From a virus: a stretch of DNA of 64,000 nt. The DNA is taken from positions 8,343-72,342 of IMG/VR virus record IMGVR_UViG_3300036790_000178. One strand, given 5' to 3'. This document shows, one piece after another, positions 2,037 to 41,114 of the stretch. The position numbers and the translations under genes were made by a program. The stretch's first letter is position 1, and each line of letters starts with the position of its first letter. The notes beneath the pieces were generated by a model. The model did no database searches, had not been told where the DNA came from, and worked only from the letters and a program-made list of their open reading frames with translations.

Positions 2037-5000
2037 TTAGCTCCCCATGCACGAGAAGCCGACGACATCTCCCGACGTGATGGTGCCGCCGAGCGTCGCG
2101 CTACTCGCCCCCCACGTGGTTTCGCTCACCGTGTTCGCGGGAGTGGTCTTGTCCACGGCCTTGCAGATCCATGTGCTATTGGGAGCCGTGGGCAGATTCA
2201 CGACGATGCTGGAAGCGCCCGTCGTCCCGGAGCATACAAAGCTGCCAACCGTGGTTCCGCCGACCAGGGTTGTCGTCGTGGCGCATGCCCCGCTACCGCT
2301 GCTCAGGGTGAACGTCGTGCCCTCATCGAGCAGGTACGTGACCGTCGTGGCCGCCGTGAGCTGACCGCTGGAGTTGGTCGAGACCACAGCCGCACTCGTC
2401 GGCACCGCCCCGCCGTTCACCTTGACCACCGTAGTAGCCACGGTCCCGGATGTGGTGGTGACGTCGCCGGTGAGCGCCGGCATCTGAGCCGCCGCCAGAG
2501 TCCCGCTATTGACCTCCGTGGCGGCGATCGACTTATTCGTCAGGGTCTGGGTTGCGGCGAGCTCCACCACCGTGTCGGTCGCGGCCGGGAATGTGGCCGT
2601 GAAGTTCGACGTGCTGGCATTCGCGGTGGCAAGAGCGGTCGTCCCGGTCGAGGAGCCCTTGATGAGAATGTCGCTAGCGGGGAAGGTCTGCGCGGCCGAC
2701 CAGGTATTCGGCACCGCAAGCGCCGCGAGAGACGCCGATGCCGGTATCGTGGTCCCGTTGACGCTGGTCACATTCGGGAGCGACGTCAGGCTCGACGCGA
2801 CGGCATTGGCGGTGATCGTGCCCGTTCCCGTCGTCCCAAGGGTGGCTCCCGTCCCGACCAGCATGGCGGCCGTCGTATTGGTCGCAGAGGTCAGCGCCGA
2901 GAACGCTGTAGCGCCAGTGCTGCTCGCCGTGATCGTGACACCGCTGCCAGAGTTCGCGAGCGTAATGTTCGTGCCGGCGATGAGATTGAGCGCGGTCTGG
3001 CTGGCATTGTTCGTGCCGTTGGTCTGAAGCGTGATCCCACCACCGCAATCAGCCCCGAAGCCCGATACCACTCCCGAGGTGCTGACGTGCAAGCACTGGG
3101 TCGAGCCGGTGATCCCGGAGAGAGTCAGGCCCGAGAGCGTCTGAGTCGCGCTGAAGGTCTGCGCGAGATTCAGTTCTGCCACCGTGCCGGTGTTCGCCGG
3201 GAACGTCCCGGTGAAATTGCTGGCTCCGGAATCCGAAGTGGTCAGCGTCACGAAGCCGGTCGAGGAGCCGAGGAGATCAAGATTCCCAGTCGTCGTGAGG
3301 CTCGCCCCGCTCCCAACCACCATCGCCGCCGATGTGTTCGTGGCCCCTGAGATCGCGCTGAACGCAAGAGTCCCAGTCGTGGTGCAGCCGATCAATTGTC
3401 CCGAGCTGTTGCTCGCGAGACAAGTCTGGCTGGCGGGCACGGTGGCGCCGTTCACCTCATTCGAGTTGAGCGTGCCGGTGCCCGTGGGTCCCAAGCTCGC
3501 CCCGCTCCCGACAAGCATTGCGGCTGCGGTATTGGTGCCACCGGTGAGAGCGCTAAATGCGGAACTGCCCCCGCCGCCGCATCCCGTGCAGCTCGCGACC
3601 GTGAGGTTTCCCGACGCATCGAGGGATGCGACGGAGGCGCCCCCGTTGACGTGGAAGTCAAGGAAATATCCCGCGAAGCCGCTGTTGCCGTTGAACCCCA
3701 TGAAGGTCCCAGCCGTGTTCCACGTCGTGACATTGGTCCCCGCCGAGAACATGAAGAGGGGAACCGTGGTCGTGCCGGTGCCACCTGAGAAAGGCGTGCC
3801 GAGGAACGCCGTTGCCGTCGAGTTCGACGCGCCGTTCTTGGTATTGTTGAAGCCCTGCGAGAAGACCTGGCCGGCGCTGAACGTCTGCCCCAGATTGAGC
3901 TCGGCGATGGTGCCCGTGTTCGCCGGCAGGCTGGCCGTCACGGAACCAAGCGCACCGGTGACCGGCGCAATGGTCACCGTGCCCGAAGTCGCATTGCCGA
4001 GCGCAACCGAACCCGCGGTACCCGAGGCGCCGAGCGACAGCGCGCCCGCGGTGATCGATGCATTCGTGGTGCCGGAGACCGCGGTGCCCGTGGAGCCGTA
4101 GAAGGCGAGCTGGCCCAGCGTGCCGGAGTTGACCGTGCCGGAGCCGGTAGTCGGTGTCTGCCAGGTCGCGGCCGTGGTGCTCGTGGCCGTGAGAACCTGG
4201 CCAGTCGTCGGGGCCGTGGCGGAGCTGACTGCAACCGTCGTCGTGGCGGATTTCAGCCCGTTCGCAACTGTGGCAGTGCCAGCGGTTAGGCTGGCGGCAG
4301 TGCCGGTGAGGTTCGTCGCAACGCCTGAGGCGGGCGTGCCGAGCGCGCCGCCATTCACGGCGAATGAACCCGCAGTGCCTACGTTGACGGCGAGCGCCGT
4401 CGCGACACTCGTTCCAAGCCCACTGAGTCCTGAAAGCGGAGCGCTGGTGGCCGCGATGGTTCCAGAACCTGTGGCACCGAGGCTCGAGCCCGTGCCGACA
4501 AGCATCGCCGCAGTCGTGTTCGTTCCGCTCGTGAGAGCAGAAAATGCGCTGCTGCCGCCACCACTACAGGCGCCCCATGTTCCCAAGCCGGCCGTCGTCG
4601 TCGAGAGTTCGCACTGGCCGGCAGTCGTGGTCGTCGGGGAGGTCAGGATCGGCTGACCATTCGCCTGCGTGTTCGCAGCCGAGCCGGCGACGATGTTCGT
4701 GACGCTCCCTGAATTCGTGCTGCCGTAGGTGGCGCTGACGGCCGCAGCCGAGGTCGTTCCTGTTACATGCTCGAACGTCGCGGCACTGGCACTTCCGCCG
4801 ATCTGCCGATATGAATTGCCGTTGCGATCATCGCGACAGTCAAAGGGAAGCGAGAAAGACGACCAGCCCGTGCAATGCGGCGGCGCGCCATCACTGGCGG
4901 CGGCCGTGCTCGTCGAGAAGAGGTTGTCCTCGTAGACGCCGCTCGTGAAACTGCTGGGGCCATGGAACTGCCAAACATACGAATTGGCGTTGGCCGTGGT

Positions 5001-8234: not shown

Positions 8235-9013
8235 GCGGCCTCCTGCACTTCGATCTGCTGTGCCGCGGCGAGGAGGCCCTGCAGGTCGAAGCCGTTCGGC
8301 GCCGTGCCGCCGGCGCGCACGAAGTCTGGCCACGCCTCGCAGTGAGCCTCCTGGAGGAAGTCGCTATTGCCGATGAGGGACCAGGAGACCGGCTGCAGCT
8401 TTCCCCAGGTCACGACGTACGCGAAGTCGGCGTCGTACTTGACGATCGGGACGTCGTGGCCGCCCTCGACGTTGCCAGCGACGCTCGTCCAGGGCTGGCC
8501 GGCGCCGAAGGTCTGCATCATCTGGTCCGTAACGACGATGCCGAGCCGGCATGACCCGAAGAGCTGCACCGCCCACTTGAGATGCGCGAGGTTGGTCGGG
8601 TCTACGGGGCCGCTGGCTGCTGACTTCTGGCCGCACAGTCCCGTAGTAGTGAGGTACTGGCACATGCCGGTCTCATCGCATCCCTGGTCCGTCGATGAGT
8701 TGCCGGGCACGTAGCCGCCCACCGCTTCATAGAGCGCGAGGATGTCCTGCTGCGTCGGGATGAGGATCGCGCCGGCGTTGGCCGTGCGCAGCATGAGGCC
8801 GTGCCCACTGTCCTCGCAGACGCAGTCCCCGAGCTGATCGTTCAGCCAGCAGATCCAGCCCGCGGCGCTCTGCTTCATCACTGCCGACACATAGTCGTCG
8901 CTCGCGGCGGGCGGGGCGCCGAGCGTGGCGAGCGCCTGATGCATGGCGATGCCGAGGCGCATCGTGCGCCGGGTATGGACCGCCGGCCGGCGGCCGGTGC
9001 GCAGCGCCATCAT
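8231..9013 (-). CDS. Papain-fold cysteine peptidase-like protein
   Basis: LNDQLGDCVC, GGHDVPIVKYD and YVVTWG motifs give a Cys/His dyad pattern. Confidence 0.65.
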   Translation of the reverse strand: MMALRTGRRPAVHTRRTMRLGIAMHQALATLGAPPAASDDYVSAVMKQSAAGWICWLNDQLGDCVCEDSGHGLMLRTANAGAILIPTQQDILALYEAVGGYVPGNSSTDQGCDETGMCQYLTTTGLCGQKSAASGPVDPTNLAHLKWAVQLFGSCRLGIVVTDQMMQTFGAGQPWTSVAGNVEGGHDVPIVKYDADFAYVVTWGKLQPVSWSLIGNSDFLQEAHCEAWPDFVRAGGTAPNGFDLQGLLAAAQQIEVQEAA

Positions 9014-38280: not shown

Positions 38281-38525
38281 TACGTTCCTTTGTGCCCGGG
38301 GGCGGCGGAGAATTTCCACGTCGGGTCTAGGGCCTTCATGCATTCATCGAGTGCGTTGCCTTGGGCCTGCAGGGCATCGCGGGCATTCGCGAGTGTGGAA
38401 CTGTCGGAAGCCAAAGCGCTCATGAGTTGCTGTCTGGTATGCGTGAGCTGCAGATGCTCCTGCGCGAGGAGTGCGATGAGACAGAGTTGCATCACGACGA
38501 TGATTATGATCGAAGTAGTTTTCAT
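38280..38525 (-). CDS. Small protein with N-terminal TM and coiled coil
   Basis: MKTTSIIIIVVMQLCLIALLA. Confidence 0.5.
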   Translation of the reverse strand: MKTTSIIIIVVMQLCLIALLAQEHLQLTHTRQQLMSALASDSSTLANARDALQAQGNALDECMKALDPTWKFSAAPGHKGT

Positions 38526-38553
38526 TGTGTGTGACCCCGCGTTGGGATTTCTG

Positions 38554-38904
38554 CTAGCGCATTGTGCTTTCAAATATGCGGCGGACTTCCTCCTCCTCGC
38601 GGGCGCGCTCCTGTCTGTACACCAGGACCCCATGCCGCTTCGCCTCAAGCTCACGAAGCTCATTGGCAGCATCAGATACACCGCGCCAGTCCCCGGTTGC
38701 GACCCTTGCCTCCAAGTGCGCGATGAGGCGGCCCCGGATTTCGTCGTACGGCATCGCGGCAGCTTTCGGCTTCGTCTCGCGCGAGGAGCTAACATGGTGT
38801 TGCGGGCCTTCGATGCGCTCGTCGTCCAGGAGCCAGAAGCGAAAGGGTGCCTCGCTGTTGACGAACACGCAATCGATCCAGGCGTATGGCAGGCGCAAGG
38901 TCAT
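38554..38904 (-). CDS. Hypothetical protein
   Basis: ATGA-coupled chain; GDWRGVSDAANELRELE. Confidence 0.55.
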   Translation of the reverse strand: MTLRLPYAWIDCVFVNSEAPFRFWLLDDERIEGPQHHVSSSRETKPKAAAMPYDEIRGRLIAHLEARVATGDWRGVSDAANELRELEAKRHGVLVYRQERAREEEEVRRIFESTMR

Positions 38905-39082
38905 GTTTTCTGCGCCTTCTGGCGCCGATTCAGATCCTGAACACGTTGCTGCGCGCACGGACGGAGGAAGTGTGTACCTTGCTCGCGGCTCGCCCATATC
39001 AGGCGCCCGCGCTTCCGCCAGAGATCCCTGGGTGTGTACCGTACTGCCAGCCAGACCTTGCGGTTGGGATAGTCAAGACTCA

Positions 39083-39580
39083 TTACGCCGCCCTCCCATC
39101 AAACATGTCAGCCGGCGAGCGATGCGCGTTCAACTCCGCAATCGTATCGAGTGACGTGATCTCGATCCGCGCTCCTGGCGCCTCGAGCGCTTCCGGGTCT
39201 TCGTTCGGAAACACCTTGGCGGCACGCAGGTATTCAACAATTCGAGCATCATCGACGATCAAGCCTGCCTCGACCAGGGCGTCCTCTGTGCTGCGGACCA
39301 ACTTCGAGACGTCGGGCTTTCGCATCGGGAATGTGCGCCGTCGTTTCGGTGCGCTGGCCGGCTTTGGCACCGTGAAGACCATGCGAACCGCGAGCGGGCC
39401 ATCGAGTGGCGGCGCACCGGCGCGGACCTTCAGCGCCTCGGCGCGGACATCCTGCCTCCATGGTTTAACCTTGCTCGACGACTCGACCATGATTCCGCGC
39501 CCGGCTTTGGACGTGCCAACAAAGCGTTTACTGCCGGCTGGTGCGGGTGAACCATAAACCACGAGACTGATCCTGGTCAT
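39083..39580 (-). CDS. rusA: RusA family Holliday junction resolvase
   Basis: VYGSPAPAGSKR, VKPWR, KPDVSKLVRSTEDAL and DDARIV motifs. Confidence 0.9.
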   Translation of the reverse strand: MTRISLVVYGSPAPAGSKRFVGTSKAGRGIMVESSSKVKPWRQDVRAEALKVRAGAPPLDGPLAVRMVFTVPKPASAPKRRRTFPMRKPDVSKLVRSTEDALVEAGLIVDDARIVEYLRAAKVFPNEDPEALEAPGARIEITSLDTIAELNAHRSPADMFDGRAA

Positions 39581-40044
39581 ACGCGTCGCTCCTGGCGCCA
39601 ACGGCGGCAATATTCGATTTTTTGTTCTCTGCGCGCGGCCTCGTATTCTGCCAAGCAAACCGGGCAACGCCGCTGGTGCTTCATCTGCACGAGCACGTGG
39701 CCTTTTGCGCATAGCACGGCGCCAGCCGTCGTCAGCGGGGAACGCCTGAGATTTATCAGCCCCGTGACCGGCTCAAGGTGATCTGGATTGACGCAGTGGC
39801 GAACGCGACAGAGGTGATCGAGCTGCAGGTCGCCTGGATCGCTACGAAGCAATGTCCAGATCAATCGGTGGGCCTGGTACGTCCGATTGTCGAGGCTTGC
39901 CCAGCCGTAGCCGTCCGGACTGCGCGATCTTGTCCATAACCAACAGCCATGCTCGCCAAGGCGGATATTCCTCCGGATGTGCAACGGAAGACCCGGGGGT
40001 AAGTTTTGCGCTTGCCACGGCGTCAACGGTTTTGGCGCTGTCAC
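39577..40044 (-). CDS. HNH endonuclease inserted in the 5' end of rusA
   Basis: CWLW...DGYG, AHR and LDHLCRVRHCVNPDHLEPVT...N motifs; GTG start with GGAG. Confidence 0.88.
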   Translation of the reverse strand: MTAPKPLTPWQAQNLPPGLPLHIRRNIRLGEHGCWLWTRSRSPDGYGWASLDNRTYQAHRLIWTLLRSDPGDLQLDHLCRVRHCVNPDHLEPVTGLINLRRSPLTTAGAVLCAKGHVLVQMKHQRRCPVCLAEYEAARREQKIEYCRRWRQERRV

Positions 40045-40088
40045 GATGCGATCTCCAACGGCGAGCCGTAGACGACGAGCTTGATCAT
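40041..40088 (-). pseudogene. Orphaned original N-terminus of rusA (MIKLVVYGSP-LEIAS*)
   Basis: LVVYGSP is identical to RusA residues 6-12; ATGA-coupled to the upstream gene. Confidence 0.8.
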
Positions 40089-40312
40089 GTCGGAGGCCTC
40101 GCGGACGGTTGACGAATCTCGGTGACGGAGGAAACGGCCGGCTCATTGGCCGCGCGAAGTCGTCCCTCCTCGATCCACTCATCGCGCCGGTAGCCGCAAT
40201 CCCTGCCTTCCACCAAGAATTGCGTCGAGCCGTGCAGCGACTCCGTGCGCCTGGTCGCGATTCCTTCGAAGCCTGTGACCGCGTCTTTGACGGACTGGCC
40301 GAGCTTGATCAC
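40085..40312 (-). CDS. Small SH3/KOW-like phage protein
   Basis: IKLGQSVKDAVTGFEGIAT.R and WIEEGRL motifs. Confidence 0.7.
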   Translation of the reverse strand: MIKLGQSVKDAVTGFEGIATRRTESLHGSTQFLVEGRDCGYRRDEWIEEGRLRAANEPAVSSVTEIRQPSARPPT

Positions 40313-40313
40313 C

Positions 40314-41114
40314 TCAGTGCGCTCCCCGGTTGCCGTTGCGCTGCCGGTCCTGATGCTTCACCCGTTCCGAGCGACCATCGAGCGCAGCGCCGCCCTTCTG
40401 CGCCTTGAACGCCTCGACCTGCTTGCGGGCTGCCTCCTCGAAACTGCCGGCCTCGGCTTGTGTCGGATCTGCGCTCGGCTTCGCCGCCTCGCCCATCACC
40501 GGCGTATCAGGATGCTCCGCGCGCATCTTGGCGTCGGTCTCGGACGATGGCGTCGACTGCGTGAAGCCGCCGCTCACCTGACGCTGGCCTTCACCGTTTG
40601 CCGGTGCCGGCCCGAACGGCACGAAGTCGAAGTACAACTGCTGCGTCTGCTCGATCAACTGCTTGGCCTGCAACACCTCCATGCTGTGCTCGCCGTGCCG
40701 TGCCGCGACCCCATCGAACCAGCCGTACTGGTGATCGTGGCGGCGCATCCGGAGCTTCGGGCGGCCCAGCGTGTCGTATTTGGGCTTCTGCGTCTCCTCA
40801 TCGATGACGCGATCCAAGTGTTCCAACTCGTGATCTACCAGGGCGTCGCGGGACTCGGCGCTGAGCGTCAACCAGGTGAAGCGGTCGACCACGATCACGG
40901 CATCTGCCATGCCGAGCGCGCGGTCGCGCAGCGGTGAGATTCGGACCACGGCGGCGGCCGAGTAGCCCTGATGCTTGAGGCACGGCAGCGTGGTCTCGTC
41001 ATCGAACACGAAGAGCGCGCCGACTCTCACCCTCGAGAGGTCAGGATGGTAGGCGTGCTGCATGCGTTCGATGGCGGTCTCGAGGTCGGAGCTGGCGTCG
41101 GAGTAGGTTTTCAT
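40314..41114 (-). CDS. Putative phage metallopeptidase-family protein
   Basis: ALVDHELEH (HExxH) and RRHD motifs. Confidence 0.75.
   Translation of the reverse strand: MKTYSDASSDLETAIERMQHAYHPDLSRVRVGALFVFDDETTLPCLKHQGYSAAAVVRISPLRDRALGMADAVIVVDRFTWLTLSAESRDALVDHELEHLDRVIDEETQKPKYDTLGRPKLRMRRHDHQYGWFDGVAARHGEHSMEVLQAKQLIEQTQQLYFDFVPFGPAPANGEGQRQVSGGFTQSTPSSETDAKMRAEHPDTPVMGEAAKPSADPTQAEAGSFEEAARKQVEAFKAQKGGAALDGRSERVKHQDRQRNGNRGAH

Follow-up and report, generated by a model that had tools for sequence, protein, structure and literature searches.

The 64,000-nucleotide stretch of DNA analysed here (the window) comprises positions 8,343 to 72,342 of the IMG/VR virus record IMGVR_UViG_3300036790_000178, which is 72,342 bases long. 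It contains a locus in which a gene for an HNH endonuclease lies between a very short reading frame resembling the beginning of rusA, which we call the stub, and a complete rusA gene with a start of its own. Each gene of this region occurs once in the record, and all of them read on the minus strand, which is the orientation used throughout for the locus (Table 1).

Table 1. Features of the stub, HNH and rusA region, with their positions in the window.
Feature	Position	Strand	Basis
Upstream gene, 75 aa, function not assigned (phrog_16275)	40085..40312	-	PHROG match
Stub open reading frame, 15 codons, MIKLVVYGSP+LEIAS+stop	40088..40041	-	direct reading
RusA part of the stub, 10 codons, MIKLVVYGSP, displaced rusA allele	40059..40088	-	RusA N-terminus profile
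Leader, 14 nt, from stub end to HNH start	40045..40058	-	direct reading
Endonuclease gene of the HNH_3 (His-Me finger) type, 155 aa, starting with GTG	39577..40044	-	Pfam, PHROG
AGGAG ribosome-binding site for the new rusA start	39589..39593	-	direct reading
Complete rusA, 165 aa, own ATG	39083..39580	-	Pfam, PHROG
Recoded rusA segment, codons 8-21, VYGSPAPAGSKRFV	39518..39559	-	codon analysis; right edge approximate

The order of upstream gene, stub, HNH gene and rusA, with an unbroken series of stop/start overlaps, had been described in an initial annotation made from the letters alone, and ATGA or GTGA overlaps are indeed read at every joint. The TGA of the upstream gene (40087-40085) overlaps the ATG of the stub (40088-40086) to give ATGA, an overlap by which translation of the original rusA would natively have been coupled to that of the upstream gene. 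The stub frame then crosses the leader, which carries GGAG (40056-40053) 8 nt before the HNH GTG, and ends in a TGA (40043-40041) that overlaps this GTG (40044-40042). In the same manner the TGA of the HNH gene (39579-39577) overlaps the ATG of rusA (39580-39578), and the AGGAG for this second start is placed 8 nt before the ATG, within the 3' end of the HNH gene. Both junctions are reproduced with 0 differences in contigs from 3 soil runs: one from X1, which is possibly the source sample, covers 38829-40782, one from X2 covers the HNH/rusA joint (39203-39660), and one from X3 covers the joint of the upstream gene, stub and HNH gene (39981-40191). These matching contigs rule out an assembly artefact. 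G+C content falls to 0.57 at 39475-39700, that is, in the last ~25 HNH codons and the first ~22 rusA codons, versus 0.62-0.70 around it, which agrees with a stretch of low G+C at third codon positions (GC3) on both sides of the HNH/rusA joint.

The HNH protein matches Pfam HNH_3 (PF13392) over residues 56-99 with 29.2 bits (cutoff 24.8; E=7e-7) and phrog_826, "HNH endonuclease", with E=3e-29, while PF05551, the zinc loop of His-Me homing endonucleases, gives 24.2 bits, under its cutoff of 27. Its GTG start is backed by the family-wide N-terminus MT.PKPLT.WQ. The protein carries every invariant column of a 43-sequence alignment of HNH relatives (A4), D76, H77, C79, C84, N98, C112, C127 and C130 among them; five of the invariant residues are cysteines, and catalytic or zinc-binding roles are what we presume for these positions. 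A search of solved-structure sequences gave no match (best E=0.82). The rusA product matches Pfam RusA (PF05866) over residues 14-123 (E=1.4e-11) and phrog_140 (E=2e-26), has all 47 invariant columns of a 16-sequence alignment (A2), and is of typical length, its relatives having 143-175 aa; by sequence it is a member of the RusA family of Holliday-junction resolvases. It reads APAGSK at a position where 118/119 other best relatives have PQGSK. The APAGSK reading is shared by L167, a locus without an HNH gene, and two HNH-linked loci that lack a stub, L004 and L051, read AAQGSK and GAQGSK, with Pro changed to Ala one codon earlier; the same kind of change is found at L044 and L082, which have no HNH_3 gene upstream.

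RusA proteins have a recognizable beginning. In the 119 best RusA relatives the initial M is followed by two to a dozen residues and then by h-x-h-V-Y-G-x-P-A-P-Q-G-S-K, and N-termini such as MIQLVVYGTP, MIALVVYGTP, MITLVVYGSP and MIKLIVYGTP are present among them. A profile of nine residues ending in G-x-P, made from these 119 N-termini, was used to score 106,361 six-frame positions of the window. The stub ranks first of the 106,361 with 31.7 bits, ahead of the real rusA start (28.0), and the next best position reaches 5.9. The RusA homology of the stub breaks off exactly after Pro10. By this profile MIKLVVYGSP is a genuine RusA start, which upholds the earlier proposal that it is the beginning of a beheaded rusA.

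The two starts spell the same residues differently. All nine stub codons after the ATG (9/9) end in G or C. The N-terminus of the complete rusA is MTRISLVVYGSPAPAGSK, and LVVYGSP, common to both, is written CTC GTC GTC TAC GGC TCG CCG in the stub and CTC GTG GTT TAT GGT TCA CCC in the new start; the third base differs in 6/7 codons, and 4/6 of these changes lead to A or T. With differences at 30% of bases between the two copies, we reject a target-site duplication. Where the imported DNA ends on the right could not be placed from the identity of RusA segments, in which no clear mosaic is seen (over residues 13-45 L167 is 94% identical to the window and 11 others are 85-91% identical), and the GC3 profile of the window is by itself only suggestive on this edge.

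The arrangement is found again in other viruses. We scanned IMG/VR with the alignment of 43 HNH relatives to collect close members of the HNH lineage, and all nine IMG/VR loci with an HNH protein at least 49% identical over most of its length (L338-L342, the three similar loci L343-345, and L242, whose contig is that of L004) adjoin a rusA-family gene. The initial annotation had suggested scanning phage genomes for further triplets of stub, HNH gene and recoded start, and four more IMG/VR contigs contain one: L338, L339, L341 and L342. In L338 the stub MLIIVHGMP continues with ETGVV to a stop that overlaps the HNH ATG, and the new rusA begins MLIIVMGSP (MLIIVMGSPGPQGSK). In L339 the stub VIRLQVRGTP continues with GRNV to a stop that overlaps the HNH GTG, and the new rusA begins VIRLVVRGTP (VIRLVVRGTPAPQGSK). 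The other two have no such mini-frame, their stubs (MTSLVEFEVLGLP in L341, MKFFVPGKPAPQ in L342) being fused in frame to an HNH protein minus its first ~17 residues, with new rusA starts MTSVVEFEVLGLP (MTSVVEFEVLGLPSPQGSK) and MITFFVPGRPAPQ (MITFFVPGRPAPQGSK), respectively. Since the fusions replace these first ~17 HNH residues, they suggest that the residues are dispensable.

The insertion point is common to the five triplets. In the window, L338 and L339 the last stub residues are G-x-P, in L342 they are APQ, and in L341 the end is ambiguous within GLP (probably at G-x-P). The start codon of the stub overlaps the stop of the upstream open reading frame in the window, L339, L341 and L342 (in L342 this frame is a putative gene), and in L338 it lies one base after that stop. 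Three of the five triplets (those of the window, L338 and L339) share a leader length of exactly 14 nt, with a purine-rich ribosome-binding site in each leader and the stop/start overlap preserved. The RusA proteins of the triplets are 41-74% identical to each other, and those of the three loci with a 14-nt leader only 64-74%. A three-frame reading upstream of the HNH gene revealed no stub in L343, L004, L340 or L365.

Two of these contigs have further peculiarities. L340:2106-2504 encodes a chimeric RusA whose first 16-18 residues (VTVSFQVHGTPAPQGS) are the start of the window's RusA type, while a different RusA family, phrog_34, is matched by residues 19-131 (E=1e-18). The HNH gene, at 2501-2965, is downstream here, and the locus looks as if, at the same motif, the original rusA had given way to one from another family. 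In L341 an unrelated HNH-like open reading frame of 193 aa (1893-2474, phrog_740, E=9e-13) is found directly upstream of the fusion, and its stop overlaps the stub ATG, which places two nuclease genes in tandem before rusA.

Fused starts like those of L341 and L342 are also found among database proteins. We searched the 119 listed HNH relatives for the expression h.h.G.P before the HNH core, with shuffled N-termini as the control, and found a RusA-like match in 17/119 versus 3/119 after shuffling (a second control, the rest of each protein, was discarded because a conserved motif in the HNH core matches the expression, giving 28 matches). Examples are MIEIVVYGSPAPQ-, MIRITVLGSP-, MTPVLSFRVVGLPAPQ- and -RLFVPGDPAPQ-. 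The stub part of these proteins ends between G.P and PQGS (at G.P, G.PAP, G.PAPQ or PQGS), and the residue with which the HNH part begins varies. A position-specific scoring matrix trained on the window's clade picks up only 4 of the fused proteins, and when IMG/VR was searched with the fused forms, two weak matches were the sole addition to the contigs collected before. Named hosts of some HNH relatives are Streptomyces, Nocardia, Microbacterium, Nesterenkonia and Methyloversatilis.

The difference in codon spelling is directional and repeats in every triplet. Summed over the five, 42/49 stub codons end in G or C versus 20/49 codons of the new starts (Fisher P=6.7e-6), and the shift is seen in all five. 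To express it for whole genes, we defined a GC3 deficit as the difference between a 19-codon window, from 6 before to 12 after the Gly of G-x-P, and the rest of the rusA gene. It amounts to 0.31 for the window, 0.59 for L339, 0.28 for L341, 0.25 for L342 and 0.13 for L338, whereas the mean of 107 HNH-free rusA genes is 0.04 (standard deviation 0.09); a deficit of at least 0.23 is reached by 4/5 linked genes versus 6/107 controls (Mann-Whitney P=2.6e-4 for the comparison of deficits). Since HNH-free rusA genes lack the shift, a general effect of the 5' end is not its cause. The two highest deficits among the 107 controls, 0.34 and 0.28, belong to L005 and L006 (rusA start ~2989-3060), which have no HNH gene upstream and a low-GC3 motif window that includes AAA AAA TTT GTT GGT; these may be formerly linked immune alleles after loss of the nuclease gene, or chance.

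The shift extends ~10 codons past the insertion point, beyond the duplicated part, and in L339 it ends sharply, with GC3 going from 0.35 to 0.90. Particular codons recur when the linked genes are compared by position with 71 G+C-rich controls: Val -2 is GTT or GTA in 5/5 linked genes versus 6% A/T-ending in controls, Pro +4 is CCA or CCT in 5/5 versus 21%, and Lys +8 is AAA in 5/5 versus 15/71. The control consensus is GTC-TAC-GGC-x-CCC-GCC-CCG-CAG-GGC-TCG-AAG, and the stubs retain such codons. That the linked alleles share these choices may be due to common ancestry or to escape by convergence. Because the rewritten stretch lies on both sides of the insertion point, it points to a recognition site rather than to avoidance of repeat-mediated deletion, and the segment at 39518..39559 would then be the HNH recognition site in its immune form. 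Comparison of stub with new start over the five triplets shows that 28/42 identical-residue codons differ, with few residue changes, which indicates that the stubs were under protein selection until shortly before they were cut off. This in turn suggests that each stub is the recipient's own start and not an old duplicate decaying in place.

Presence of the nuclease gene next to rusA is sporadic. We collected 109 loci with RusA (80 viral and 29 genomic; the upstream open reading frame was scanned in 107) and found HNH_3 directly upstream of rusA in 2/109, L004 and L051. Pairwise identities of HNH and RusA are uncorrelated (Spearman rho=-0.03 over 15 pairs, a comparison made without trees in which saturation is possible), L341 and L342 for example being 69% identical in HNH and 41% in RusA, and this suggests that the nuclease gene has moved between rusA clades. 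In sequenced phages there was no HNH or RusA match of at least 60% identity (374 and 567 records, respectively). The HNH protein was absent at E<=1e-15 from 401 sampled genomes of the family of G003 and at E<=1e-25 from 401 sampled genomes of the genus of G405, and it had no close match in 9 sampled genomes holding rusA loci.

These observations are best explained, and in our estimate probably so, by a lineage of homing endonucleases specialised on the 5' motif of rusA and accompanied by a recoded, resistant allele of its target. The HNH protein would cut an HNH-free rusA in the motif V-Y-G-x-P-A-P-Q-G-S-K, at about codons 8-20, and the break would then be repaired from a phage that carries the HNH gene. 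In loci whose RusA proteins are only 41-74% identical, the stub ends cluster in the best-conserved region of rusA, over no more than five codons, which argues for a site-specific break. The resulting layout is the one observed: the recipient's first 9-13 codons form the stub, with native start and upstream coupling; next comes a short leader that contains a ribosome-binding site, then the HNH gene, and finally an entire rusA that has a start and a ribosome-binding site to itself. The nuclease would be translated from the hijacked rusA start, by termination-reinitiation at the stop/start overlap in the window, L338 and L339, and as an in-frame fusion of stub and HNH in L341, L342 and the 17 database proteins. 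In the linked rusA, where the motif is kept as protein and written mostly in A/T-ending codons (with a further change of Q to A in the window), the spelling would confer resistance to the enzyme. The different spelling also makes new start and stub too unlike each other for the element to be lost precisely. The initial annotation had proposed a homing element that invades a conserved coding site, repairs the gene it enters and gains immunity from the recoding, and the recurrent triplets, the 17/119 fusions and the replicated codon shift all support that proposal.

The element may have entered by either of two routes, or by both. Leader, HNH gene and new start may travel as a cassette for which the stub serves as the left homology arm, or the stubs may be fresh scars of one-sided repair. 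The constant 14-nt leader beside locally derived stubs speaks for the cassette, while the variable fusion junctions, the stub-free loci L004, L343 and L091 and the stub-like new starts speak for one-sided repair.

Several points weigh against the homing interpretation or limit it. Each new start resembles its own local stub, and this, together with the lack of correlation between HNH and RusA, means that the new start may be the donor allele of a related phage and not a fixed part of the element; the earlier statement that the HNH gene supplies a replacement start thus stands insofar as a complete rusA with its own start follows the HNH gene, and is open to this other origin. At the window alone, the 6-of-7 synonymous differences are ordinary allele divergence, since 61% of identical-residue codons differ between the window rusA and 22 natural relatives and P(>=6 of 7) is 0.17, not beyond chance at one locus. 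Thus, the claim of a synonymously recoded start is correct as to the six differing codons and their mostly A/T direction but is not carried by their count. The shift in L338 is weak, and the six controls that reach 0.23 do so without an HNH gene. The triplets number only 5, L338 and L004 were drawn from a single metagenome, and the 119 database relatives of the HNH protein entered the analysis as protein sequences. In L343-345 and L091 the HNH gene lies directly upstream of rusA with no visible stub. L004, the closest HNH-linked relative (HNH 67% and RusA 73% identical), whose HNH stop overlaps the rusA GTG, has neither a stub nor a GC3 shift (-0.04).

An uninterrupted allele of this phage lineage would likewise be expected, and the initial annotation had predicted one in which MIKLVVYGSP runs directly into APAGSK; such an allele was not found, the similar RusA proteins being those of other phages. 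No close phage relative with an uninterrupted rusA was found in IMG/VR or metagenome contigs. Relatives of the upstream gene occur at 17 IMG/VR loci and 47 metagenome-contig loci, and the best of them, L195 (62%), has no rusA downstream. A pattern encoding MIKLVVYGSP had 0 matches in IMG/VR, and a looser stub pattern had 14, consisting of 10 full-length, distant RusA-like open reading frames and 4 chance matches with stops. A joint that skips the HNH gene was absent from the contigs of runs X1-X4, contigs being a form of data that drops rare variants. RusA reading MIKIIVYGSPAPAGSK (L167) or MIKLIVYGTPGPQGSK (P0052) is present in other phages only.

The most serious rival, which we nevertheless consider unlikely, shares target, immunity and endonuclease with the homing interpretation and differs from it solely in the origin and role of the stub. 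Here the HNH gene would normally reside between genes, upstream of an intact rusA as in L004, and cut naive rusA genes; the stub would be a by-product of an illegitimate join at the left end, made where upstream homology is not shared, as in one-sided homing, with no role and not as a homology arm, and the "replacement start" would simply be the donor's own rusA start. The stub-free loci L004, L343-345 and L091 fit this account, as do the variable junctions of the fused proteins (G.P, G.PAP, G.PAPQ or PQGS, with varying HNH start), which illegitimate joins predict, the uncorrelated HNH and RusA similarities and the likeness of new starts to local stubs. One-sided homing with microhomology joins is also known for T4 introns (PMC2988022). 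What it does not readily explain is the exact 14-nt leader in three loci whose RusA proteins are 64-74% identical, with the stop/start overlap kept, since such divergence suggests an inherited and possibly selected junction rather than independent accidents; nor the retention of native starts and coupling in the stubs.

A functional partnership, in which the HNH protein acts together with RusA, for example in DNA processing, so that adjacency is selected and the stubs are relics of rearrangement, would account for why this HNH subfamily is constantly next to rusA-family genes, which belong to two PHROG families. We regard it as very improbable, because the HNH gene is present at only 2/109 rusA loci, more distant HNH homologues in sequenced actinophages occur in quite other contexts (by an integrase/repressor region, by a gene for a single-stranded DNA-binding protein, and between two endolysin coding sequences), and both stubs and codon shift are left unexplained.

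Slightly less credible still is a single recombination scar, in which mosaic recombination swapped in an HNH-rusA module and left a fragment of the old rusA behind, with codon differences due to ordinary divergence of alleles and no targeting of rusA. In its favor are the ordinary P value of the window's codon differences, the absence of a second RusA start in 110/110 rusA loci, and an early, crude search for stubs at 139 HNH loci, not yet including the close relatives, which gave no other clean case; that search was too noisy, with a null maximum of 48 versus 41 for the window. Four more triplets with stub ends inside the same motif, the 17/119 fused proteins, the directional shift in 5/5 triplets and the 9/9 close IMG/VR relatives that adjoin rusA strongly disfavour it, and copies of one recent event are an unlikely fit to triplet RusA proteins that are 41-74% identical.

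A self-splicing intron, an intein or ribosomal bypass, with the stub as the true first exon of rusA, would suit the native start context of the stub and the interruption of a coding region by the HNH gene, and it is the least probable explanation of all; we reject it since there is a second complete start with its own ribosome-binding site, under splicing the duplicate would be redundant, the stub-HNH frames of L341 and L342 stop before rusA, an Rfam search of 38500-40800 on both strands gave no family at E<=1 (no group I or II ribozyme), and no Hint or intein domain but only HNH_3 was found in the HNH open reading frames, with stub and HNH of the window in different frames. The earlier description of a splicing-free element agrees with these searches.

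Several known systems resemble this one in part. The endonuclease gene mobE reportedly splits nrdA of phage Aeh1 into two needed pieces that reassemble, and in that respect it is likewise a free-standing endonuclease gene within a phage coding sequence with neither intron nor intein; unlike in mobE/nrdA, the upstream piece here is a remnant of 9-13 codons and the downstream gene is complete. Allomyces atp6 is said to be a precedent for an endonuclease gene with a duplicated gene end. In fungal mitochondria, endonuclease open reading frames lie between atp6 or cob and partial C-terminal duplicates of these genes (PMC6279837), and this matches the earlier note's mention of organellar endonucleases with replacement gene ends. 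The likeness is that an endonuclease gene has a functional gene on one side and, on the other, a partial copy of that gene's end. However, the fungal cases are organellar, involve LAGLIDADG or GIY-YIG enzymes and duplicate the 3' end, whereas here the setting is a phage, the enzyme is HNH and the duplicated end is the 5' end. With the 5' end duplicated, the gene needs another start codon and another ribosome-binding site, and its old start would serve the nuclease. For the fungal cases, the passages of PMC6279837 consulted mention no shift in the codons of the linked copy.

Free-standing homing endonucleases in phages, also invoked in the earlier note, are represented by the seg and mob genes of T4-type phages, which home without introns ("intronless homing"; PMC2988022). 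Similar to these, the gene described here belongs to a homing nuclease family (HNH in this case), lies outside any intron or intein and is sporadically present, it presumably cuts the endonuclease-free neighbour allele so that gene and flanks are copied, and the donor allele would be protected by sequence differences. In contrast to the T4 genes, which lie between genes and can have cut sites hundreds of bases off, the insertion is inside the coding sequence of the target, the start-bearing stub feeds or fuses to the nuclease gene, and the target is rebuilt with a second start. One-sided homing of a T4 intron, with homology on one side and a microhomology junction at the other (PMC2988022), would also leave a leftover of the recipient gene beside the incoming element; that is an engineered laboratory system with an intron, unlike the natural and recurrent arrangement with an intact downstream gene seen here. 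In full-text searches, whose coverage mostly excludes subscription journals, we found no description of a phage 5'-end duplicate, a hijacked start or a rewritten motif.

Taken further, the rusA-specific HNH lineage, in phages of Actinobacteria and Proteobacteria, could be the first described case of a third way, beside introns and inteins, for homing endonuclease genes to exist inside phage coding sequence, a proposal for and against which we see the balance as even. Under such a "gene restart" the nuclease gene would enter after the first codons of a conserved gene, take over its start and coupling through a coupled mini-frame or an in-frame fusion, and leave the gene behind in full, with another start and a synonymously rewritten motif that is not cut, with the ~39-bp rewritten stretch as the recognition site. 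A selfish nuclease gene could in this way colonise conserved phage coding sequence without splicing and at little cost to the host gene. The loci would also constitute a natural, replicated case of synonymous rewriting of a target site, and they predict a recognition site of ~39 bp with a cut near rusA codons 12-17. An annotation oddity would be accounted for as well, namely database "HNH endonucleases" with a RusA-like N-terminus (17/119 listed) and short stub frames that are left uncalled. Nuclease genes as markers of the boundaries of genetic exchange in phage genomes are a theme of PMC10448857, and the mechanism proposed here would add a concrete route to that theme.

Two observations made at other loci concern the wider range of targets and nucleases. 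In Gordonia phage Smoothie (L418; NC_030696.1, 31978-32439) an HNH homologue of 47% identity lies between two coding sequences annotated as endolysin, the joints being stop/start overlaps, and this may be another gene entered by the wider HNH family. Directly upstream of rusA in L040 (1138-2019) and L063 (2112-2993) are 294-aa MUG113/T5orf172 proteins, which represent another putative family of homing nucleases, and the L040 rusA has a GC3 deficit of 0.22 in its motif window. The 5' end of rusA may therefore be a target for more than one nuclease family.

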